From NCBI GenBank assembly GCA_041661305.1, contig JBAZUR010000003.1:5103-69102 (forward strand): 64,000 nt of DNA, read 5' to 3'. Source of the DNA: Minisyncoccota bacterium. Its GTDB lineage: Bacteria > Patescibacteriota > Minisyncoccia > Phycocordibacterales > VMEP01. The notes under the pieces are model-generated. The model worked only from the letters and a program-made list of their open reading frames with translations, was not told the DNA's origin and made no database searches. Below are positions 6,936 through 63,059 of this stretch, piece by piece. A program made the translations under genes and the position numbers. Every line of letters starts with the position of its first letter. Position 1 is the stretch's first letter.

Positions 6936-7008
6936 CCGCCCATAGCTCAGTTGGTAGAGCAGCTCCCTTTTAAGGAGAGGGTCGCAGGTTCGACTCCTGC
7001 TGGGCGGA
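6936..7008 (+). tRNA. tRNA-Lys (anticodon TTT)
   Basis: Cloverleaf folded by hand. Acceptor stem CCGCCCA/TGGGCGG, D-arm GCTCAGTTGGTAGAGC, anticodon loop CTTTTAA, T-arm GCAGGTTCGACTCCTGC. CCA is not encoded. Confidence 0.85.
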
Positions 7009-7032
7009 CAAGGTTAAACTAAATAGGCTGTT

Positions 7033-14879: not shown

Positions 14880-15308
14880 TTACTTATGATCAGCTATCTC
14901 TCTACGAAGAGCGTTGTCATAGTTTTGCATGAGGTCTAGGAACCAAAAACCAAAGAAGAACTCGCAAAACATCAGAAGGAGTCCCCATCCAAAATACGGC
15001 AGAAACACTTCCGTTGCGATGATGGTCGCCGTGAACAGGGTAAGCACAGTCACTTGGGTGTGCCAGTTTCTGTTCGGAAAAATGAAGCGGGAGATTTCCC
15101 AGCACAGCAGAAGGAAAAACAGAGGGAGTACACCAAAATTCACCCACATTTGGTCTAGAACGAACCTTACTTTTGTGGGTAAAAAGAATCCCCAGCGGTA
15201 CAGCGCTCGGGCGTGCTGGTTTTGCCTGATACCGTCGTCAATGATAAACGATAGCTTTTGAAACCAGTTCAGGTCAGGGCGGTTTGCGTATGTCGACAAG
15301 ATATTCAC
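14880..15308 (-). CDS. Hypothetical membrane protein (GC-richer)
   Basis: Three to four transmembrane segments. The overlapping ORFs in other frames are composition artefacts. Confidence 0.4.
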   Translation of the reverse strand: MNILSTYANRPDLNWFQKLSFIIDDGIRQNQHARALYRWGFFLPTKVRFVLDQMWVNFGVLPLFFLLLCWEISRFIFPNRNWHTQVTVLTLFTATIIATEVFLPYFGWGLLLMFCEFFFGFWFLDLMQNYDNALRREIADHK

Positions 15309-23354: not shown

Positions 23355-23822
23355 TTACTCTCTGCCGATACGGACGTCTGGCGCATGTCGTACGACATTT
23401 GTTCCCATGAAGCAGGAGAGGTGGGCGAACAGTTTTCGTTTATATACCTCTCCTGAAATTGAGGCAGCGAAGACGATGATATCTTCTCCTTTTGTCGAGA
23501 AGCCGCACAAATTACAGCTCCTTTGGAATGATGGCTCGGATACGCCGGTTATCGCCATTGTCGCCATAACAATATCGTAACGAGCCTTGAAGTGCGGATT
23601 TTCGTCCAAGAAACATTTTGTGTGATGCCGTTCGGCGTGAATGTCTTTCGGGTAGAAGACTAGCACTACCTCCTTTCCAGTGGTTGATTCAAGACATTCT
23701 TTGCATGGTAATTCTCCGTGCTCACTGCCCCTAGAGACTCTCCCGTGTTTCGTTCTTTTGATCATTATGCATCTCCTTTTCTTATCGAATGAACCTTTTT
23801 TCAGCTGGCGAAGAGTATACAC
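23355..23822 (-). CDS. Hypothetical CxxC...CxxC zinc-finger-like protein (GC-rich)
   Basis: Cysteine pairs CKEC and CNLC. GC-rich relative to the rest of the window. Confidence 0.35.
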   Translation of the reverse strand: MYTLRQLKKGSFDKKRRCIMIKRTKHGRVSRGSEHGELPCKECLESTTGKEVVLVFYPKDIHAERHHTKCFLDENPHFKARYDIVMATMAITGVSEPSFQRSCNLCGFSTKGEDIIVFAASISGEVYKRKLFAHLSCFMGTNVVRHAPDVRIGRE

Positions 23823-23906: not shown

Positions 23907-24593
23907 CTAGTGGTGGTGATAGTGGTCGTGCCCACAATGGTCATGACCAGTGCTTGGTTTGACTAGGAGTCGGCGCAGGGCGATGAAGAGAATGAGTCCA
24001 CCCAAAAAGAACGAAAGTATCGGATCAATGATGGTAACCCCAGTCATCCAGATAGCGATACCGCCAAATATGACAAGCACGCTTGCGCCGGTGTCGACAA
24101 CGATATGGAGCTCTTGCCACCAATGCGTTTCGTTTTTATGTTCCTCGTGCGCGTTGATGTGCATGAAGTACATAAAAAGATTCGCAACAAGACCAACAAA
24201 GCCAAGCATGATCATGTACCCCACCTGTATTTCGTGCGGGTTTGCCACTCGGTCCGGAGCTTCGATGACGATGATCCATAGAGCGACGCCGATAAGCAGA
24301 ATTGCACTGAGGTACCCGCCACGCCGGCGAAGCATTTTCTCGTCCGTACTTGTCCTGGCGCGCTTGGACACAATCATGGAAACGAAGCTCTCGGACCCAT
24401 CCACAAGCACGTGGAACGAGTCGGAAATGAGAGCCAAGCTTCCAAAGAAAATGCCACCAAGGAGTTCGACAAGGAAAAGACCAAACGAAATCATTGTGAG
24501 GCTCATGTAGTGCAGAACCTCTTCTTCGCAACGACAGTCGCTTTGCTGTCCCGTTTTAAGGAACTGACAAGCGGCAATATGGTTGTTTTGCAC
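23907..24593 (-). CDS. Cation diffusion facilitator (CDF) family transporter: transmembrane domain only, His-rich C-terminal tail
   Basis: Six transmembrane segments with CDF motifs (HVLVDGSESFVSMI, IEAPDRVANP). Ends in GHDHCGHDHYHHH and has no cytoplasmic C-terminal domain. GC-rich. Confidence 0.65.
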   Translation of the reverse strand: MQNNHIAACQFLKTGQQSDCRCEEEVLHYMSLTMISFGLFLVELLGGIFFGSLALISDSFHVLVDGSESFVSMIVSKRARTSTDEKMLRRRGGYLSAILLIGVALWIIVIEAPDRVANPHEIQVGYMIMLGFVGLVANLFMYFMHINAHEEHKNETHWWQELHIVVDTGASVLVIFGGIAIWMTGVTIIDPILSFFLGGLILFIALRRLLVKPSTGHDHCGHDHYHHH

Positions 24594-25540: not shown

Positions 25541-26377
25541 ATGGTTAAGATCTTAGACGGTAAAATTGTGCGCGATGAAATAGTGGATTTTTTGTCGCGC
25601 GAAGTAAAAAGATTTAAAACAAAACCACAGTTGGTGATTATTCAGATTGGCAGTCGCGCTGATTCTGACTCATACATAAAACAAAAAAAGATTTTTGGGG
25701 AACGAATTGGTGCGAAAGTGACACATCTGAAATTTAAAGAAAATATTACAGAAAAGAAACTACTCTCTGTTGTTTTGAAATGTAATATTGATAAAAAAGT
25801 TTCTGGAATTATTGTTCAATTACCATTACCGAAGCAATTAAACTCGTTTAATATTATTGAATCCATTTCTCCCAAAAAAGATGTTGACGGTTTAACTTCA
25901 GTAAATTTAAAGAAACTAATTACAAACGACGAAAGTGGTTTTCTTCCAGCAACACCAAAAGGGATTGTTTCGCTTTTTGAATATTACAAAGTCTCTATTC
26001 GTGGAAAAAAGATAGTTGTTGTTGGTCGTTCTCCTTGGCTAGGAAAACCATTGGCGCTTCTTTTGATAAACAATGGCGCGACGGTGACCGTCTGCCATTC
26101 GGGAACCAAAAACTTGGCAACTGAAACAAAAAATACCGAGATATTAATTGTTGCCACAGGAAAGCCGAAACTCATCGGCAAAAAACACGTTTCATCCGGG
26201 CAGGTAGTTATTGATGTCGGGATAAACAAAGTGGATGGTAAACTTGTTGGTGATGTAGATTTTGAGGCGGTCAAAAATATAGTTAAGGCTATAACGCCAG
26301 TGCCAGGCGGGGTGGGGCCATTGACCGTCGCTTCGCTTTTCCAAAATTTAGTTTTGAGTGTGAAAAATAAAAATTAA
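25541..26377 (+). CDS. folD: Bifunctional methylenetetrahydrofolate dehydrogenase / cyclohydrolase
   Basis: KILDGK start, VGRSPWLGKPLALLL..NGATVTVCHSGT, PVPGGVGPLTVA. Confidence 0.85.
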   Translation: MVKILDGKIVRDEIVDFLSREVKRFKTKPQLVIIQIGSRADSDSYIKQKKIFGERIGAKVTHLKFKENITEKKLLSVVLKCNIDKKVSGIIVQLPLPKQLNSFNIIESISPKKDVDGLTSVNLKKLITNDESGFLPATPKGIVSLFEYYKVSIRGKKIVVVGRSPWLGKPLALLLINNGATVTVCHSGTKNLATETKNTEILIVATGKPKLIGKKHVSSGQVVIDVGINKVDGKLVGDVDFEAVKNIVKAITPVPGGVGPLTVASLFQNLVLSVKNKN

Positions 26378-32295: not shown

Positions 32296-32718
32296 ATGGC
32301 AAAAAAAATAACAAAAAAAATAAAGTTACAAATTGCAGCTGGTAAAGCAACCCCAGCGCCACCACTTGGACCCGCCTTGGGACAGGCTGGAGTTAATATT
32401 GGAGATTTCGTTAATAAATTTAACGACGCAACCAAAGCAAACGTAGGAGAAAAAGTTTCAGTTGTCGTACGTGTTTACGAAGACCGAACATTCGATTTCG
32501 TTGTTAAGACTCCTCCTGCAACAGGACTTATCTTAAGCGCAGCTGGTGTTGAAAAAGGTTCCGGCAAGCAGGCAGTAACAAAAGCTGGAAAGATTACAAA
32601 ACAGCAATTGCGTGAAATCGCCGAGAAAAAGATGTCAGATTTGACTGCAAACGATATCGAGGCAGCAATGAAGATAATCGAAGGTTCAGCACGTTCTGCT
32701 GGAATCGAAGTTAAGTAA
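32296..32718 (+). CDS. rplK: 50S ribosomal protein L11
   Basis: [34 protein letters not shown]. Confidence 0.9.
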
Positions 32719-32734
32719 TAATAGATTTTTAAGT

Positions 32735-32768
32735 AAAGACCGCTAAAAATAGCGGTCTTTACTTTTTG
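32735..32768 (+). terminator. Terminator (aaagaccgctaaaaatagcggtcttt + T-run)
   Basis: Inverted repeat plus T-run. Confidence 0.75.
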
Positions 32769-32836
32769 TTTCAAAGAGTATAGTTTTGTCGTAGAAGGTT
32801 CCTGTAATTTTTCAATTTTTCGAGGAGGTATATCAA

Positions 32837-33661
32837 ATGGCAAAGAGTTTTGATGAGATTTCAGTCCGCGTTCTCGCGAGCACCAAGGTTGACCGTGAAG
32901 CGGTTCGTGCATGGCTTGACGAGATGGGGGCCGATGAATTTGAAATCCCCACCGAAGATGCCGTTTCTGAGCCGGCGCTTCTTGTGGCACTTGCCGCTAA
33001 GCAATGCTACATGGCTTTCCAGCCCGGGCTCAACCCGAACGTCAACAAGGTTCGCAAGGATATGGTCGAGTATCTCGACAACGTTCTTGCGCAACGGCAC
33101 GGATCTGTACTTGAGCACTGTGTTTTCACTTTCGGTATCAACGGCTGTTCCAGGGTTTTCACTGGCGAGATGAATCGCCATCGCGCCGGTGTCGGTATTT
33201 CGGAACGGAGCATGCGATACATCCGTTATACCAACGTCCGTTTTTGGATGCCCGAGTGTTTTCGCGATGAGTCGGAAGACACGGAGAAGCTCCTTCGCAA
33301 GAAGCTGCTGAGCCGCGAGCTTCTCACCAAGGCTTTCGAGGGCGACGAGGAGATGATGGCAACGTTCGCCGACATCTGGAAGGAAGAGTTGTCGCCCGAG
33401 AGTACGTTCCATGCGAAGAAGGTTCTCACCTCGGCGTTTCGGCGTGGTATTGGCATGGGGATTGCCACTGGCGGTGTTTGGTCGCTTAACTTGCGCGCCC
33501 TTCGGCACGTGATCGCTTTGCGTACCGATGCTGGCGCCGAAGAAGAGATCGTCCACGTCTTCAAGAAAGTGGGCAAGATCATGATCGCCCAGGTGCCGGA
33601 ACTCTTCGGTGACTTCAAGGAAGTTGATGGGTCTCTCGTTCCGGAATACTGGAAGGTGTGA
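32837..33661 (+). CDS. thyX: FAD-dependent thymidylate synthase ThyX (GC-rich gene)
   Basis: ThyX signature RHRAGVGISERSMRY (RHR...S.RY) and VLEHCVFTFGINGCSRVFTGE. GC content is visibly higher than in flanking genes. Confidence 0.75.
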   Translation: MAKSFDEISVRVLASTKVDREAVRAWLDEMGADEFEIPTEDAVSEPALLVALAAKQCYMAFQPGLNPNVNKVRKDMVEYLDNVLAQRHGSVLEHCVFTFGINGCSRVFTGEMNRHRAGVGISERSMRYIRYTNVRFWMPECFRDESEDTEKLLRKKLLSRELLTKAFEGDEEMMATFADIWKEELSPESTFHAKKVLTSAFRRGIGMGIATGGVWSLNLRALRHVIALRTDAGAEEEIVHVFKKVGKIMIAQVPELFGDFKEVDGSLVPEYWKV

Positions 33662-33677
33662 TTTCGCTTGTTTGATC

Positions 33678-33711
33678 AAAAGCGGTGGCATTTGCCACCG
33701 CTTTCTTTTTT
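33678..33711 (+). terminator. Terminator (aaagcggtggcatttgccaccgcttt + T-run)
   Basis: Inverted repeat plus T-run. Confidence 0.75.
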
Positions 33712-33765
33712 ATGCACTACATGGTAAAAGTTTATTAGTTCAATTACACAGAGGGGTTCTTTCCA

Positions 33766-34871
33766 TGAATAAGGCTCAAGGCGCGCTTCCGCGCCAAAAG
33801 ATTCGCGAAATGATTGATTCCGGGATGATCACCTCTGTCACGAGAGAAGAGTTGATAAACCCAGCGTCACTTGATTTAACGCTGTCCGAAGAGGCGTTCA
33901 GGGTGACTGGTGTTTTTTTGCCGAGGCCAGGAGAAAAAGTTCGTGACCTGATAAGTCATCTGAATGTTTCGGTTCACGATCTTTCTAACCCAATGGAATG
34001 CGGAGTCTTATATCTTGTCCGCCTTGAACAGTATTTTCATTTGCCGACAATGGTCTACTCGTACTGCAACCCAAAGTCGACCACCGGCAGAAACGACCTG
34101 CATGTCAGGGTCATGGCCGATGGGGTTCCAAGTTTTGACGCAATGGCACCAGGTGGTTTTTGTGGTGAAGCCTGGGTACTCATCACTCCGAAATCTTTCC
34201 CGGTGATTCTTCCGGCGGGGGAGGCGGTTTGTCAGGCGCGTTTCTTTTTTTCCGACACACGCCTTTCGGAGTTTGAGCTCCAGAATCAGTTTGCGAGGCA
34301 TCAGCTACTTTATCATTTGGACGGCCGGCCGTATGAGTATAGCGAGATGCAAGTTCGCTACAACGACGGCTCAATCGTTCTAACACTCGATCTTTCCCAA
34401 GAAGTTGTTGGGTACGTGTGTCGTGGGTCAGGCAGTATTCTCGATTTCTCGAAAGGGAAAGCCTCGCATGATTCGGCAGATTTTTTTGAGCCAATTTATA
34501 GGCCAAAAAACGGCTATCTGCATTTGCGGCAGGGGTCTTTTCTTATCCTCTCAACCGCAGAGGCAATACACGTTCCGCCAGAGTTTGCTTGCGAAATGCG
34601 CGACATGGATTCACGAAACGGTGATTTCCGTGCGCACTACGCGGGGTACATCGATTGCGGATGGGGGCACGGAAAAGATGGCGAAGGAAAAGGGCGACCG
34701 CTTACTTTGGAAGTTCGTCCGTTTGAAGACCTCTTCGTTCGGCACGGACAACCGATAGCCAGAATCCGTTTCGAGCAAATGGCAGAAATGCCCGACCAGC
34801 ATTACGACAGCAAGCCGGTTTCAAATTACACAGTGCAGTCTGGGCCTAAACTCTCCAAGCACTTTAAATAA
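33766..34871 (+). CDS. dCTP deaminase/dUTPase-superfamily protein, apparently double-length (GC-rich)
   Basis: GYIDCGWGHG resembles the G.IDPGY.G motif of the trimeric dCTP deaminase/dUTPase fold. At about 368 aa it is roughly twice the normal length. Confidence 0.5.
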
Positions 34872-34880
34872 TAGTGATTC

Positions 34881-34915
34881 ACCACCGCACCCTAAAGGTG
34901 CGGTGGCTTTCTTTT
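34881..34915 (+). terminator. Terminator (accaccgcaccctaaaggtgcggtggc + T-run)
   Basis: Inverted repeat plus T-run. Confidence 0.75.
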
Positions 34916-34978
34916 ATATTTTGAAAGTGTTAGTTTTGTAATAGAAATTTTGTTTTTTCAATCAGGAGGAGTGCAAAA

Positions 34979-35641
34979 ATGAATCCTATTTATTGCGTTT
35001 TTGATGGACTGGATGGTTCAGGCAAGGGTCTTCAGCTGGATCTCCTCAGGGAACGTCTTGATCGCCACGGTATTCATAATGGCGAGCGGGTTGTTTTTAC
35101 TCGAGAACCTGGGGGAACGCCACTTGCGGAGGTAATTCGCGAGGTAATTCTCGGCCCACTCGCGAAGGAATCAACACCATTCAACAACATGCTCCTCTTT
35201 CTTGCCGCTCGTGAAGAGCTCATGAGAAAACTGGTGTTTCCGGCAATTTTGGCCGGAAAGTCAGTAATTTCTGACCGTGGTGATTCTTCCACTTTCGCTT
35301 TCCAGATTTACGGCGAGGAGAGGTTTGCACTGGAGGAGAGGTTTTGGCGGTTGCGCGAAGATATTTTTCGCCATTCGCCACTGCGCTCTAACGGTCCCGA
35401 CATTTACGTGTTTTTTGACCTTCCGCCCCTGGTTGCATATCAACGGATGGCGGGCGATTCGGCTCGCACGAAGACCCATTTCGACCTACGTCCGATTGAA
35501 TATCATGAGCGTGTTCGTGATGGGTTTAGTGATTTTGCGAGGCAATGTAGTACGGCAGTTATTGTCGACGCCAACCGAAAACCCGAAGAAGTTCACGAAG
35601 AGGTCTGGAGTATTGTTTCGGAAGAGCTTGGTTTGGCCTAG
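34979..35641 (+). CDS. tmk: Thymidylate kinase (GC-rich)
   Basis: P-loop FDGLDGSGKG, REPGGTPLAE, lid region. Confidence 0.8.
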   Translation: MNPIYCVFDGLDGSGKGLQLDLLRERLDRHGIHNGERVVFTREPGGTPLAEVIREVILGPLAKESTPFNNMLLFLAAREELMRKLVFPAILAGKSVISDRGDSSTFAFQIYGEERFALEERFWRLREDIFRHSPLRSNGPDIYVFFDLPPLVAYQRMAGDSARTKTHFDLRPIEYHERVRDGFSDFARQCSTAVIVDANRKPEEVHEEVWSIVSEELGLA

Positions 35642-35654
35642 AAGACAACCAAGT

Positions 35655-35692
35655 AAAAATCCGTGTTTGCCAGCTGGCGACACGGATTTTTT
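35655..35692 (+). terminator. Terminator (aaaaatccgtgt...acacggatttttt)
   Basis: Inverted repeat plus T-run. Confidence 0.7.
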
Positions 35693-35776
35693 CATGAAAT
35701 ATAATAATGTTTTGAATACACGTAAACAAAAAAAACACCGATTCTTAAAAACAATTAGTCATGCTAGAATCGCCTT

Positions 35777-37351
35777 ATGGTGATTCATTTTTTGAGAGAA
35801 AAATTAAACTATGTACTCAAAGATACTTTTCCAGAGAGTGGAGAAATTTCTTTTAATATTTCAGCAGATAATCGCTATGGTGACTACACGACCAATATTG
35901 CGATGGTGGCAAAAGCTGAAAATAAAACCTCTAAAGAAGTAGCGGAGATTTTTATTGGAAAATTAAAAGAAGATAAAGATTTTAATGAAGTCGTAAGTGA
36001 AATAAACATAGCCGGCCCTGGGTTTATAAATTTCACTCTTTCGTCTGAGGCAATATTGAAAGAACTCTCAAAAACTATAGAGGCGACAGAAAAAGGTTTT
36101 GATTTTATAAAAGACAAAAAAATAAATATTGAGTTTATTTCTGCTAATCCAACTGGTGCTTTGCATTTAGGTCATGGGCGCGGGGCTTTTTATGGAGATA
36201 GCTTGGCAAATATTTTCTCTCTCGCAGGAGGAGATGTTGTCCGTGAATATTATGTGAATGATTCTCGTGAGAGTAATCAAATCAAGGAGCTTGGCAAATT
36301 GGCTCTAGGAGTAGGGGAACAATACAAAACCGAAAAGACAATTGCGCTTATTGAGCAAAATGATTTTTTGCAGATGAGTGAAGTGGACGCTGGTTTTAAA
36401 TTAGCCACATTAATACAAAGAGAGAACAGAGATTTTGTTGAAGAAAAACTTGGAGTTCGTTTTGATGAATGGTATTCCGAAGACGGGAAACTAAGAGCTA
36501 GTGGCTCAAATCAAAAGATGTTCGATGAGCTAAAAGAGAAAAATTTTGTTTATGAAAAAGAAGGAGCTTGGTGGGCAAAAACAACTGAGTATGGCGACGA
36601 TGAAGACAGAGTCGTGCTCCGAAGTGACGGGACATTTTCTTATTTTCTTTCAGATATTTCTTATCACGCAGATAAGTTTTCTCGAAAGCACAAAGAGGTA
36701 ATTGATGTTTGGGGGGCGGATCATCACGGTCACGTAATGAGAATGATGGCTATTAAAAAAATGCTCGGTTGGGAGGGGGATTTTAAGGTTTTCATTACCC
36801 AGTTAGTTTCGCTTAAAGAAAATGGGGAAGTGGCAAAGATGTCCAAACGTGCAGGCAATGTTGTTCTGCTTGAAGATTTGGTAAATGAAATAGGCCTAGA
36901 TGTTGTGCGCTGGTTTTACAATGAGCGCGCGCTCAATACCCACATGGAGTTTGATGTCGCACTAGCGAAAGAACGCTCAGAAAAAAATCCTGTATTTTAT
37001 GTGCAATATGCGCACGCAAGAATGGCTTCCATTGTTGTAAATTGTTCCGCGCTCACTGAAAACGATACATCACTCTCTGCTGTTTTGGAGAATAAATCAG
37101 CACGTGTGCTTGCGACGAAACTGATTCAGTTTTCGGAAATGGTTGAATCAACTACAGAGGATTGTCAGGTTAACCATCTGACGACATATGCTTACGAGTT
37201 GGCCTCATTATTCTCTCAGTTTTATCGCGATGTTCGTGTTATAGAGGAAGATAAATATAATAAAGGAGCATTAGAACTTGTGCAGTCGACACGGACAGTT
37301 TTGGCAAAAACATTGGCACTTTTGGGAATCTCTGCTCCCGAGAAGATGTAA
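35777..37351 (+). CDS. argS: Arginine--tRNA ligase
   Basis: ISANPTGALHLGHGRGA (HIGH region), KMSKRAGNVV (KMSKS), C-terminal DALR anticodon-binding region. Confidence 0.9.
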   Translation: MVIHFLREKLNYVLKDTFPESGEISFNISADNRYGDYTTNIAMVAKAENKTSKEVAEIFIGKLKEDKDFNEVVSEINIAGPGFINFTLSSEAILKELSKTIEATEKGFDFIKDKKINIEFISANPTGALHLGHGRGAFYGDSLANIFSLAGGDVVREYYVNDSRESNQIKELGKLALGVGEQYKTEKTIALIEQNDFLQMSEVDAGFKLATLIQRENRDFVEEKLGVRFDEWYSEDGKLRASGSNQKMFDELKEKNFVYEKEGAWWAKTTEYGDDEDRVVLRSDGTFSYFLSDISYHADKFSRKHKEVIDVWGADHHGHVMRMMAIKKMLGWEGDFKVFITQLVSLKENGEVAKMSKRAGNVVLLEDLVNEIGLDVVRWFYNERALNTHMEFDVALAKERSEKNPVFYVQYAHARMASIVVNCSALTENDTSLSAVLENKSARVLATKLIQFSEMVESTTEDCQVNHLTTYAYELASLFSQFYRDVRVIEEDKYNKGALELVQSTRTVLAKTLALLGISAPEKM

Positions 37352-48891: not shown

Positions 48892-49182
48892 ATGATTCAG
48901 AAAGCAAAAAAAAGAACATCATTTTTTTTAGGCATCTTGGTTACAAGCATTTTGGGAACTATTGGTGGTTATGTAAATTCTAATTACTCAAAAGACGGTT
49001 CTTTCCTTGTATCTGTTGCTAAGGCAGATGTTCCTTCGCCGTTTGGTGGTACTGGTTTTGAAGGTGGTAGCGCTGGGGAAAGTGCTCTTGGTGTTGATGC
49101 TGGTAGTGGCGGTGGTAGTGGTTGCGATGGTGGTAGCGGTGGTAGTGGTGACGGTGGTGGTAGCGGAGGTGATTGCGGTTAA
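48892..49182 (+). CDS. Candidate RiPP (TOMM/LAP-type) precursor A: conserved N-terminal region plus Gly/Ser/Cys/Asp-rich C-terminal core
   Basis: N-terminus MIQKAKKRTSFFLGILVTSILGTIGGYVNSNYSK, then AKADVP, then a core ...GSGGGSGCDGGSGGSGDGGGSGGDCG. A paralog lies at 51335. A YcaO / SagB-dehydrogenase pair is 4.4 kb downstream. Confidence 0.5.
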   Translation: MIQKAKKRTSFFLGILVTSILGTIGGYVNSNYSKDGSFLVSVAKADVPSPFGGTGFEGGSAGESALGVDAGSGGGSGCDGGSGGSGDGGGSGGDCG

Positions 49183-50447: not shown

Positions 50448-51059
50448 TCAGTTCGTCTTGCGTACTTCAACCACGACCTGGTAGAGGTCAAATTCCGGCG
50501 ATTCGTACGAACAAATCATCGCCAGCTCCGGACAGTAGAAGTATTTCTCCATCGCCGGACGGAACGCTTCAGCTAGTTGGTTTGTGGCACGAATTTCGTA
50601 GGCCTTGAATACCCCGCCAGGCAGCTTGATGTCGCCGTATCCTACAACCTCTGCACTTCGCGTGCGTTTCTGAACCCGCCCGTTTGAGCTTTCTTGCTCA
50701 AACGATCCCTTCCAGCTATTTCCGTTTTTCATAGGAAACTGCAAGAAGTAGGAGTGCGGTTTGTAGGTTGCGTACGGGAACGGGCGAACCTTCGTGCCGA
50801 GGTCCTTGTTGAAGATGGTTTCCTTCTTTTCTTTGCCACCTTCTTCTTGGACCAAAAAAACAAAGTCCTCGCCTCGGCGTTCAAGAAACTCCGTTGTAAG
50901 ACATTCCGGCTTTTCGCGCACGTAGTAGCCGGTTTTGCACGTTTTTACCACGAGCCCCTTGGTCGGTTCCGGGTTTAAAGTGGCCGGCACTTCCTCCGCA
51001 GACACAAAAAGCGGAAAAATAAAAGCGCCGAAGGCACACACGAGCTTGATGATATTCAT
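50448..51059 (-). CDS. Hypothetical secreted protein (signal peptide; GC-rich gene)
   Basis: Signal peptide MNIIKLVCAFGAFIFPLFVSA. GC visibly above the window background. Confidence 0.5.
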   Translation of the reverse strand: MNIIKLVCAFGAFIFPLFVSAEEVPATLNPEPTKGLVVKTCKTGYYVREKPECLTTEFLERRGEDFVFLVQEEGGKEKKETIFNKDLGTKVRPFPYATYKPHSYFLQFPMKNGNSWKGSFEQESSNGRVQKRTRSAEVVGYGDIKLPGGVFKAYEIRATNQLAEAFRPAMEKYFYCPELAMICSYESPEFDLYQVVVEVRKTN

Positions 51060-51334
51060 GACGAACCTCCTTGTGTTGTATTGAAATACTAGATTTACAA
51101 TAGATCGAAGCTTCTTTCATGGTACAACAACCGACATTAAAAGTCAATACCGCTTTATAATATTCATGTTATTAGTTAAATTATTAGGAATTAAAATTAG
51201 AGAGGAAAATTAATGGGCGAGAGTCACAAAAATAAATAAACAGGTAACATTTATATACGAGGATTAGGGAAACCAACAGGAAGACATAGTTATCCACACG
51301 ATAGGTGTATTTTAGTGATATCATTGTCTGTAGC

Positions 51335-51616
51335 ATGATTCAGAAAGCAAAAAAGAAAACATCATTTTTATTAAGTATTCTTATTACTGGAATACTCGGG
51401 ACTATTGGTGGTTATGTAAACTCAAATTACTCAAAAAACAGTTCCTTGCTTGCTCCGATCGCTAAGGCTGATATACCTGCGACAAGCGCGGATATTTTTG
51501 GCGGCAGTAGCGCGGGGGACGCTGGTAGCGGTGACGGTGGCGGCAGTGGTGGTGATGGTGGCGGCAGTGGTGGTGATTGTAGTAGTAGCGGTGGTGACGG
51601 TGGTAGTGGATTCTAG
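51335..51616 (+). CDS. Candidate RiPP precursor B (paralog of 48892-49182)
   Basis: First ~120 nt nearly identical to precursor A at nucleotide level (atgattcagaaagcaaaaaa...). The core is GGSSAGDAGSGDGGGSGGDGGGSGGDCSSSGGDGGSGF. Confidence 0.5.
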   Translation: MIQKAKKKTSFLLSILITGILGTIGGYVNSNYSKNSSLLAPIAKADIPATSADIFGGSSAGDAGSGDGGGSGGDGGGSGGDCSSSGGDGGSGF

Positions 51617-53017: not shown

Positions 53018-53458
53018 ATGAAGATCTTCAAAAAAACTGTTTTTACTCTGATCGCCTTGCTCTTCGTTTTCGTCGGCGCTTCGTTTGCACAAACGAAGCT
53101 GGCGGCAGACGCGAGTGACGCAGGTAAGTCGGATGTAGCGGCAAATATTCCGGCCAACTGCGCCGCCTTTCTTGGGGCTTGGGTAGGTCGCTGGGAATAT
53201 GGCAATTACGGCGAAATGCGCCTGCAGGTTCTTGAAGTTGATACAAATTGTGTCGCCAAGGGTGCCTACGGAGGAAATACGGGGAAAGCATGGCCATACG
53301 AAGGTGCAGAAATCAAGGCCGACAAGATGTCCTGGCTTTGTAGCAAAGCCAGGACGGGGACATGTGTCTTCGAAAATCACGGCGATACGCTTTGGGCAAA
53401 CTACCACGATCCTTCCGGTGGCAAGAACAACGGCGTTTTCAAGAAAGTTGCCCAGTAA
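53018..53458 (+). CDS. Small secreted protein (signal peptide; strongly GC-rich gene)
   Basis: MKIFKKTVFTLIALLFVFVGASFAQT signal peptide. Followed by a strong terminator. The overlapping ORFs on other frames look like GC artefacts. Confidence 0.45.
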   Translation: MKIFKKTVFTLIALLFVFVGASFAQTKLAADASDAGKSDVAANIPANCAAFLGAWVGRWEYGNYGEMRLQVLEVDTNCVAKGAYGGNTGKAWPYEGAEIKADKMSWLCSKARTGTCVFENHGDTLWANYHDPSGGKNNGVFKKVAQ

Positions 53459-62735: not shown

Positions 62736-63059
62736 ATGAACAGGATGGTTTTCGTTGTCTGTGGTGCTTCATTTCCTCAGATACGTGAGCTAGAGGAGCG
62801 TTTCAATATGGTTTCAGCCCCTATCCTTATTTTGGGAACAACTGGCGGGCAGTTTCTCCGTGACCTTTTGAGTATTGGGAAAATTATTCGCAATATCCCA
62901 AACGTTGAGGTATTCGCGCTTCGCGAGTTCGAAAAAGAAATGAGGGCGCTCACTGAAAGAAGGTGGGGTGGCAGAACAACTTTTCACCAAAACAAAGGCA
63001 ACTTTGCCGAAGACAGAAGAAGGAAGGTTCCTTGGCGACGAAATGCGAGAAATCGATAA
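62736..63059 (+). CDS. Hypothetical protein (uncertain; Arg-rich C-terminus)
   Basis: ORF with GGGG Shine-Dalgarno-like sequence upstream. A competing antisense ORF exists. No motif support. Confidence 0.25.
   Translation: MNRMVFVVCGASFPQIRELEERFNMVSAPILILGTTGGQFLRDLLSIGKIIRNIPNVEVFALREFEKEMRALTERRWGGRTTFHQNKGNFAEDRRRKVPWRRNARNR

Follow-up and report, generated by a model that had tools for sequence, protein, structure and literature searches.

The thyX, dcd2 and tmk genes that lie between rplK and argS in a 64-kb stretch of DNA (referred to here as the window) from a member of the Patescibacteria, class Paceibacteria, are best understood as a resident and essential dTTP locus that has been laterally replaced or recombined within the phylum from GC-richer relatives, a reading to which we attach a probability of about 0.6. 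The trio does not appear to be an inserted accessory island, because the rplK-adjacent gene order is conserved across class Paceibacteria. The order secE-nusG-rplK-thyX-(dcd)-tmk-argS-ileS is shared by about 20 Patescibacteria genomes of this class, and the 3' end of rplK lies 2 kb or less from thyX in 23 of 23 related genomes having sufficient flank, a count based on loci that were picked by ThyX similarity and that leaves out genomes lacking thyX. Downstream of thyX, tmk, argS and ileS are found in most of these 23 genomes, and either Dcd2 or a short Dcd adjoins thyX in about 15 of them. The closest relatives of the window locus are L060 and L004, which form a small clade with it, and spacers of about 100 nt bearing hairpins also separate the genes in L005, L006, L008, L011 and L022.

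The proteins encoded by the trio

The preliminary description of this DNA had named the products as ThyX, a double-length dCTP-deaminase-like protein and Tmk, and these identities were borne out by Pfam and NCBIfam, with the second protein falling under the equivalog cut-off. The thyX gene (32837..33661; all features described here are on the forward strand) encodes a FAD-dependent thymidylate synthase of 274 residues that scores above the cut-offs of both PF02511 (117.9 bits, 6e-34; cut-off 24.8) and TIGR02170 (106.6 bits; cut-off 87.9). Its residues 114-128, RHRAGVGISERSMRY, conform to the pattern RHRx8SxRY and match what we take to be the ThyX signature, RHRx7-8S(xRY). The tmk gene (34979..35641) encodes a dTMP kinase of 220 residues, with above-cut-off matches to PF02223 (116 bits) and TIGR00041 (117.7 bits; cut-off 83.25) and a P-loop, GLDGSGKG, at residue 10.

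Between them, dcd2 (33765..34871) encodes a double-length, tandem-domain protein of the dCTP-deaminase family with 368 residues, in which PF06559 (DCD_N, 126.5 bits), PF22569 (DCD_C, 133.5 bits) and two stretches of PF22769 were recognized, and of which residues 29-368 are matched by PDB 2R9Q (E = 1e-58). The open reading frame listed for this gene starts at 33609 and overlaps thyX; this start was rejected in favor of the ATG at 33765, which is preceded by the Shine-Dalgarno sequence AGAGGGG and is kept in L004. Against NF005734 (PRK07559), Dcd2 scores 268.6 bits, just below the equivalog cut-off of 283, and given this near miss it is classed, on sequence grounds, as a divergent member of the PRK07559 family. 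The C-terminal half contains IDCGWG at 296 and LTLEV at 313, and the N-terminal half contains KSTTGR at 105, without the Glu. By analogy to E. coli Dcd, the Glu of the TLE motif is presumably catalytic, and the Ser and Arg residues presumably bind the nucleotide. We know of no biochemical characterization of the double-length dCTP deaminase family. The best Dcd2 match outside its own clade (75%) is found on a contig where it lies beside thyA and DHFR.

Transcription signals and the loss of dut

Each gene of the trio was said to be bounded by strong hairpin terminators, and four stable hairpins, each with a U tract on its 3' side, were indeed found, with energies in the range of -20 to -22 kcal/mol and z between -5.1 and -7.2. 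The intrinsic terminator that follows rplK (32731..32764) has a perfect 15-bp stem and a T tract (-22.2 kcal/mol, z = -7.2) and marks the left edge of the GC-rich block, the right edge being the terminator after tmk (35650..35696; -22 kcal/mol, z = -5.1). The remaining two follow thyX (33679..33704; -20.1 kcal/mol, z = -5.8) and dcd2 (34882..34906; -20.7 kcal/mol, z = -6.3). Three of the four hairpins, those after rplK, thyX and dcd2, show compensatory double substitutions with respect to L004 (a T>G / A>C pair in the thyX terminator and an A>G / T>C pair in that of dcd2), and the tmk terminator is conserved in L060. AT-rich spacers precede thyX (32765..32836, with a putative -10-like TAGAAG at 32792-32797 and the Shine-Dalgarno sequence GAGGAGG at 32822-32828) and tmk (34907..34978, with TAGAAA at 34942-34947 and AGGAGG at 34964-34969); they are 87% and 91% identical, respectively, to their L004 counterparts, and we infer that they act as promoters. 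By eye, the two spacers resemble each other, sharing the arrangement TAGTTTTGTnnTAGAA ... TTTTTCAAT ... AGGAGG. In Rfam scans of the region from 30 to 38 kb, no hit passed the threshold, the E values being from 0.5 to 1.

Downstream of tmk, alignment with L060, which carries dut at this place, showed that about 440 bp have been cleanly deleted; the resulting scar spans 35697..35776. The dut promoter TATAAT is kept at 35700-35705, the former dut start reads ACG at 35720 instead of ATG, and the argS -10 box TGCTAGAAT follows the dut scar at 35762-35770. A search for dut throughout the 64-kb window found none, and the gene was recently lost from this site. Because this recent loss took place at the neighboring site, Dcd2 is regarded as a candidate bifunctional dCTP deaminase/dUTPase.

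Base composition

The preliminary observation that the trio is GC-richer than its flanks was confirmed by windowed GC, which placed the top 3-kb stretch of the window here, beginning at 32651 (0.495, z about 3.8; runner-up, 0.451; overall GC of the window, 0.39). The GC of thyX, dcd2 and tmk is 0.549, 0.500 and 0.502, compared to 0.398 +/- 0.041 for the 63 other open reading frames, and their GC3 is 0.655, 0.520 and 0.471, compared to 0.332 +/- 0.082, which corresponds to z values of 3.9, 2.3 and 1.7 and to ranks 1, 6 and 8 of 66, the background in all cases being these 64 kb of the genome. The proportion of Arg, expressed as R/(R+K), is likewise 0.54, 0.64 and 0.79, versus 0.37 elsewhere. The excess is confined to the coding parts, the spacers being AT-rich, and is common to the window, L060 and L004; composition switches abruptly at the gene boundaries. 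About five further small GC-rich islets of open reading frames occur within the window, of which the trio is the extreme and not the unique case.

The GC-richness is not a property of thyX as such, because in 16 other genomes, among them the AT-rich L016, L024, L008 and L019, its GC3 stays within about +/-0.14 of the host value; an intrinsically GC-rich thyX was rejected on the basis of these four. A GC3 of thyX at least 0.27 above that of the host was found only in the window and L004, in L021, in L023 and in L026/27. GC-rich thyX genes inside AT-rich hosts are thus a feature of several lineages, and not of all.

Divergence of the trio and of its hosts

The divergence of the trio is discordant with that of its host. 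For the pairs defined by (WIN,L060),L004, the dS of the host ArgS is 0.37/1.86/2.03; for the same pairs it is 1.24/1.00/0.72 for thyX, 0.63/0.62/0.67 for dcd2 and 0.47/0.63/0.83 for tmk. Divergence of the cassette therefore fails to track that of the host, and the lineage-specific substitution counts are unequal among genes (chi-square p = 2e-20). Part of the contrast in dS may be gene-specific, as the values for nusG, rplK and secE between the window and L004 are also lowish (0.8-0.96). This discordance, together with the anomaly in composition, upholds the earlier suggestion that the atypical composition points to a lateral history.

ThyX is 73-90% identical across Paceibacteria hosts whose L11 proteins are only 50-90% identical, although this flat level of identity could be partly due to strong among-site rate heterogeneity. 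In L023 and L025-27, the site beside rplK is taken by a second type of ThyX (51-56% identity), and the hosts of type-A ThyX and those of the second type are interleaved: L020 and L026/27 share 86% identity in NusG and only 53% in ThyX. The ThyX tree, in which NJ bootstrap values for the backbone are below 50%, does not recover a host clade that has 100% bootstrap. Outside the clade formed by the window, L060 and L004, the best match of ThyX is 87% identical, and that of Tmk, outside its own clade, 63%. Since the best outside-clade matches of ThyX, Dcd2 and Tmk sit in three different genomes, transfer as one block is not demonstrated. All homologs of the three proteins that have a source name are patescibacterial or carry a generic label only.

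Alternative origins of the GC-rich trio

The preliminary description took the trio for an auxiliary nucleotide-metabolism module of phage or plasmid origin, inserted between rplK and argS, as its atypical composition and self-contained transcription units might suggest. Further support could be drawn from an NJ tree of ThyX built only from the retrieved genome and IMG/VR loci, in which the sister of the type-A clade lies on an IMG/VR contig (ThyX 63% identical) that carries the phage-typical PolA, UDG, DUF3987 and dUTPase_2, and in which type-B ThyX groups with two other viral contigs. However, 63% is the upper limit of identity between ThyX and any IMG/VR copy (40% in the case of cultured phages), to be compared to 74-89% among Paceibacteria, and neither Dcd2 nor Tmk is next to thyX in any viral locus. 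Dcd2 had no match among cultured phages and just two relatives, at 26% identity, in IMG/VR, where no close Tmk was found, and a plasmid search yielded no match to the three proteins. Neither an integrase or transposase nor a tRNA or flanking repeat was found at the locus. It is bordered by rplK and argS, with over 7 kb to the nearest tRNA, and the repeat matches are at chance level, the rplK and tmk terminators sharing AAGTAAA.A.CCG at 10 of 13 bases. A suppressor tRNA called by ARAGORN ('tRNA-Stop') was rejected on reading its sequence. Above all, the locus and its gene order are conserved class-wide: the comparison of synteny in relatives, with thyX adjacent to rplK in every one of the genomes counted and the same flanking frame, contradicts a mobile module and largely refutes a phage or plasmid origin, which we consider very unlikely. 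Of the two results that had been proposed as speaking against a foreign origin, the phylogeny does place the trio with the host class, but its composition lies outside the range in which most of the window falls. The abrupt change in composition at the gene boundaries might also be expected if a GC-rich fragment of another organism had been chimerically joined to an AT-rich contig during assembly or binning. This can practically be dismissed, since assemblies made independently from separate samples (L001, taken from ENA, and L002 and L003, taken from Logan) contain identical rplK-thyX and tmk-argS junctions, which recur in the diverged L004 and L060, and since the spacers within the block are host-like, AT-rich and co-evolving with the flanks.

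A more serious contender, albeit an unlikely one, is vertical inheritance with no GC-rich donor, the composition being maintained by codon or GC selection, or by GC-biased gene conversion, the locus being prone to recombination. Under this explanation, the cassette would have been present in the clade before its radiation, near a GC-rich steady state, and several observations agree with it. Lineage-specific changes in the cassette, polarized by parsimony, which is noisy here, amount to 227 GC->AT versus 190 AT->GC (176:143 at third positions). The third-position ratio of 1.23 (approximate 95% CI 1.0-1.5) is near that expected at equilibrium (about 1.1) and below the 1.9-2.6 predicted by a simulation in which GC3 decays neutrally to the host level of 0.31, so that it looks to lean against simple neutral decay and the composition seems nearer to a steady state than to a decaying import. 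All three members of the clade hold GC3 at 0.47-0.66 despite dS of 0.5-1.2, discordant branch lengths speak for recombination at the locus, and the searches found no donor: a metagenome scan with Dcd2 recovered no more than a 1.3-kb piece of the same organism, and no hit came from viral scans in which Dcd2 and Tmk were used as single queries. On the other hand, the noise of parsimony polarization at such divergence weakens the substitution argument, and the host-like GC3 of thyX, dcd2 and tmk in the AT-rich L016, L024, L008 and L019 argues against any general GC selection on these genes. Moreover, the bias for Arg over Lys points to a long stay in a GC-rich background, and an excess of 0.14-0.33 in GC3 seems large by the standards of biased gene conversion in bacteria.

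A model for the locus and its implications

In the model that we favor, that of lateral replacement within the phylum, each gene of the trio would form a separate transcription unit, in which an AT-rich spacer carrying a -10-like box is combined with a Shine-Dalgarno sequence and an intrinsic terminator. The two dUTPase-fold domains of Dcd2 lie in one chain, in which the C-terminal domain alone retains the catalytic glutamate of LTLE. The protein would deaminate dCTP to dUTP or might instead take dCTP straight to dUMP; ThyX is predicted to methylate dUMP to dTMP by means of methylene-tetrahydrofolate and reduced flavin, and Tmk to phosphorylate dTMP to dTDP. The GC- and Arg-rich coding sequences would have arisen by in-place lateral replacement from presumed donors among GC-richer relatives of the same phylum, in one or more transfer events probably placed around the time when the window, L060 and L004 diverged or later, and would have been followed by homologous exchange of cassette segments between members of the clade.

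A bolder, and rather doubtful, extension is that the rplK-adjacent thymidylate locus of Paceibacteria is a class-wide hotspot of gene flow. This notion derives from the near-uniformity of ThyX relative to L11, from the replacement, at least once, by a second ThyX type related to phage copies, and from the occurrence of a GC-rich thyX allele in several AT-rich lineages without measurable decay to host composition. If true, it would imply that the allele is imported again and again from a common GC-rich gene pool, perhaps with phages as vectors, or else that GC-biased conversion or selection is exceptionally strong at this one locus.

Little is at stake here beyond the right annotation: the three proteins are standard enzymes of dTTP synthesis and are so named in public records, and thymidylate synthases are a textbook case of lateral transfer, all of which is ordinary biology. 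The case nevertheless serves as a caution that, in the streamlined Patescibacteria, an island of atypical GC with its own terminators can be a conserved core locus and not a mobile element. Specialists may also find of interest that such a core locus bears evidence of intra-phylum recombination or replacement, and that a recent loss of dut has occurred beside a double-length Dcd that is a candidate dCTP deaminase/dUTPase.

Comparison with known systems

Each of the three proteins has the hallmarks of its family, with some departures. The window ThyX agrees with the ThyX/Thy1 family in its full-length domain, the RHR-x8-S-x-RY motif and the dCTP deaminase and dTMP kinase genes alongside; it differs in belonging to a Patescibacteria-specific subclade of unusual uniformity and in being GC-rich in this host. 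Dcd2 shares with the double-length dCTP deaminases (PRK07559; 2R9Q) the two-domain architecture, the length (368 versus 370 residues) and the C-terminal IDxGWG...LTLE, the difference being its score under the equivalog cut-off. Tmk shows the full-length, above-cut-off match and the P-loop of thymidylate kinases (PF02223/TIGR00041), but it is Arg-rich and only 34-63% identical to Patescibacteria Tmk proteins outside its own small clade.

As a unit, the trio resembles a classical genomic island, or a cassette of phage auxiliary metabolic genes, in its atypical GC and self-contained transcription units, and differs from both in having no mobility genes, tRNA or repeat boundaries, sporadic distribution or close viral or plasmid homologs. 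A parallel is provided by the displacement of thymidylate synthases, for which lateral transfer and non-orthologous or xenologous displacement have been described (Stern et al. 2010, PMC2826268), as has the acquisition of thyA by Patescibacteria (PMC12455944). As in those cases, the history of the gene departs from the host tree; here, two types of ThyX are found at one locus, and a close relative of Dcd2 lies beside thyA and DHFR. The exchange in the window differs in that it appears to have occurred within the phylum, in place beside rplK, and seemingly to have included dcd2 and tmk.

Gene identities and transcription units

The window, with a mean GC of 0.395, is a piece of an AT-rich Patescibacteria genome of Paceibacteria type, and public records hold identical ThyX and Tmk proteins labelled 'MAG: Candidatus Paceibacterota bacterium'. 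The genes here run in the order DsbA-like, VKOR, SIMPL, secE, nusG, rplK, thyX, dcd2, tmk, argS, ileS and recO. The product of thyX (32837-33661) matches PF02511 and TIGR02170, both above cut-off, and carries RHRAGVGISERSMRY, while that of tmk (34979-35641), which has a P-loop, matches PF02223 and TIGR00041. The product of dcd2, a double-length member of the dCTP-deaminase family, comprises two domains (DCD_N and DCD_C), shows homology to PDB 2R9Q (E = 1e-58) along its whole length and scores 268.6 bits against the PRK07559 equivalog, slightly below the cut-off of 283; the IDxGWG ... LTLE catalytic motif is kept in its C-terminal half only. Translation of dcd2 begins at the ATG in position 33765; the GTG farther upstream, at 33609, overlaps thyX and was rejected as the start. 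The identities proposed in the preliminary description thus agree with the family matches, and the three proteins are already correctly annotated in public records.

The same description gave each gene its own terminator, and this was confirmed. Four hairpins, one each 3' of rplK, thyX, dcd2 and tmk (-20 to -22 kcal/mol, z -5 to -7), are each followed by a U tract, and three of the four show compensatory double substitutions relative to L004, which, together with L060, is the closest relative of the window; the hairpins are therefore functional structures, most simply read as intrinsic terminators. Since each trio gene also has a Shine-Dalgarno sequence of its own and, upstream, a TAGAA(G/A) box as putative promoter, the trio can be read as three monocistronic units. 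In five other genomes (L005, L006, L008, L011 and L022), too, thyX, dcd2 and tmk are separated by spacers of some 100 nt that contain strong hairpins, so this layout is normal for the locus across the class. In the GC-rich clade, the thyX-dcd2 spacers contain, 3' of the terminator, a second conserved, hairpin-forming element, TTGCTTTTTACGC...GCGCGTACAGT.TGCCCGGGCTGTAC (L005 10826-10981, L006 10826-10966, L011 10826-10949, L022 571-702), which is absent from the window and may regulate dcd2 from the 5' UTR. Downstream of the trio, an extended -10-like box, TGCTAGAAT (35762-35770), identical in L060, ends 6 nt (35771-35776) ahead of the argS ATG (35777), suggesting a leaderless argS mRNA or one with a very short leader.

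A resident locus

A ThyX scan over one genome per GTDB species yielded 31 loci. In all 23 Paceibacteria-type loci with enough flank, thyX is no more than 2 kb from the rplK 3' end, co-directional or inverted, inside a shared frame, secE-nusG-rplK ... tmk-(glyA/dut)-argS-ileS. The gene that follows it encodes a double-length Dcd in about 11 of the genomes and a short Dcd in at least four. The source-named homologues of ThyX, Dcd2 and Tmk all come from Patescibacteria or bear the generic label 'bacterium'. No integrase, transposase, tRNA or flanking repeat was found at the trio locus. Cultured phages offered ThyX at no more than 40% identity and no Dcd2 match; IMG/VR viral contigs offered ThyX at up to 63%, two Dcd2 relatives at 26% and no close Tmk, and in no viral locus retrieved does Dcd2 or Tmk adjoin thyX. 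A plasmid search with the whole cassette as DNA returned no match for any of the three genes. An assembly artefact was ruled out by the same junctions in independent assemblies (L001-L003) and in the diverged L004 and L060. The trio is not an inserted island, and its earlier description as a phage- or plasmid-derived module is not supported.

Two very different ArgS types occupy the position downstream of the thymidylate genes: that of the window (35777-37351) recurs at 48-95% identity in L004, L060, L009, L012 and L059, and the second, at no more than 21-25% identity, is that of most other Paceibacteria loci (comparison with L005-L027), which suggests that argS was displaced too. In L059, a GC-rich relative, a 454-aa Thy1-domain protein (822-2186) replaces the 274-aa type of the window beside rplK. 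The thyX of L021 (9993-10838), GC-rich in an AT-rich host, is apparently frameshifted near its 5' end, which may mark a pseudogene or reflect an assembly error.

Composition and lateral history

The GC-richness of the trio was borne out. The GC of thyX, dcd2 and tmk is 0.549, 0.500 and 0.502, against 0.398 +/- 0.041 in the remaining 63 ORFs of the window, and their GC at third codon positions (GC3) is 0.655, 0.520 and 0.471, against 0.332 +/- 0.082. The GC-richest 3-kb stretch of the 64 kb begins at 32651 (0.495; second best, 0.451). Only coding sequence carries the excess, the spacers being AT-rich, and the proteins are high in Arg and low in FYMINK residues. Further small GC-rich ORF islets (GC3 0.44-0.62 versus 0.33 in the host), at 14880-15308(-), 23355-23822(-), 23907-24593(-), 50448-51059(-), 53018-53458(+) and 62736-63059(+), may be lateral acquisitions or spurious ORFs; one encodes a cation-efflux family protein and the others have no Pfam match.

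Intrinsic GC-richness of these genes was rejected: thyX GC3 lies within about +/-0.14 of host GC3 in 16 of 23 genomes, including the AT-rich L016, L024, L008 and L019, and exceeds it by 0.27-0.33 in the window and L004, L021, L023 and L026/27. Two ThyX types, 51-56% identical, sit at the same rplK-adjacent site in interleaved hosts, which implies replacement in place; L020 and L026/27 share NusG at 86% identity and ThyX at only 53%. Within the small clade of the window, cassette divergence departs from that of the host. Pairwise dS (window-L060, window-L004 and L060-L004, respectively) is 0.37, 1.86 and 2.03 for the host gene ArgS, 1.24, 1.00 and 0.72 for thyX, 0.63, 0.62 and 0.67 for dcd2, and 0.47, 0.63 and 0.83 for tmk. 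Lineage-specific substitutions (window/L060/L004) number 63/34/27 in thyX, 53/56/59 in dcd2, 26/40/59 in tmk and 35/30/157 in ArgS, and differ between genes (chi-square p = 2e-20). The discordance increases from tmk to thyX, suggesting that recombination breakpoints lie inside the cassette. ThyX does not recover a host clade with 100% bootstrap, its backbone lacks resolution, and its identity is flat (73-90%) regardless of host distance (Spearman about 0.2), to which rate heterogeneity among sites may contribute. The lateral history read from composition is likely, but within the phylum; a phage or plasmid source is not supported.

How the cassette has stayed GC-rich admits more than one explanation. 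Polarised lineage-specific GC->AT and AT->GC changes in the cassette number 227:190 in all, with a ratio of 1.23:1 at third positions, only a slight GC->AT excess, whereas simulated neutral decay to host equilibrium predicts 1.9-2.6:1; in ArgS they are balanced (109:113). This shortfall leaves room for recombination-linked GC-biased conversion or selection holding the cassette GC-rich, and also for its repeated re-import. No donor appeared among the retrieved homologues. Outside the clade, the closest Dcd2 (75% identical; L058, 78-2860) has thyA and DHFR, not thyX, as neighbours on a contig with a GC of 0.47, Tmk comes closest in L059 (63%) and the best ThyX reaches 87%, so a single block transfer is unproven. 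A neighbour-joining tree restricted to the retrieved genome and IMG/VR loci places the ThyX of an IMG/VR contig with phage-typical replication genes (PolA, UDG and DUF3987) as sister to the Paceibacteria ThyX clade, and the second ThyX type (L023 and L025-27) clusters there with two other viral contigs; thyX may have been vectored by phages at some depth, in either direction.

The dTTP pathway and other features of the window

From family knowledge, Dcd2 would convert dCTP to dUTP or dUMP, ThyX would methylate dUMP to dTMP with methylene-THF and reduced FAD, and Tmk would phosphorylate dTMP to dTDP. The window carries folD (25541-26377) and no dut, glyA or DHFR within its 64 kb. L060, L004 and L059 have a dut of host-like GC between tmk and argS; comparison with L060 (2628-3200; ArgS 95% identical) reveals that some 440 bp have been cleanly deleted at 35697-35776, leaving the dut promoter TATAAT and a start codon changed from ATG to ACG at 35720. 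Should the genome lack dut altogether, a bifunctional Dcd2 would be required.

Elsewhere, ARAGORN called a 'tRNA-Stop' with anticodon TTA at 6936-7009 (+). Read by hand, the cloverleaf (7-bp acceptor stem CCGCCCA/TGGGCGG, D arm GCTC/GAGC, anticodon loop CTTTTAA) places the anticodon one base earlier, as TTT; a suppressor was therefore rejected, and the gene most likely encodes an ordinary tRNA-Lys(UUU). Paralogous small ORFs at 48892-49182 and 51305-51616, with near-identical N-termini (MIQKAKK(R/K)TSF...), are each followed by an ORF of 380-400 aa, and the GC-rich ORF 50448-51059 lies between the copies; the arrangement looks like a tandemly duplicated module.

Comparison with known thymidylate synthase transfers

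That ThyA and ThyX undergo lateral transfer and displacement is well documented (PMC2826268), and horizontal acquisition of thymidylate synthase has been reported in Patescibacteria (PMC12455944). The trio is ordinary biology.
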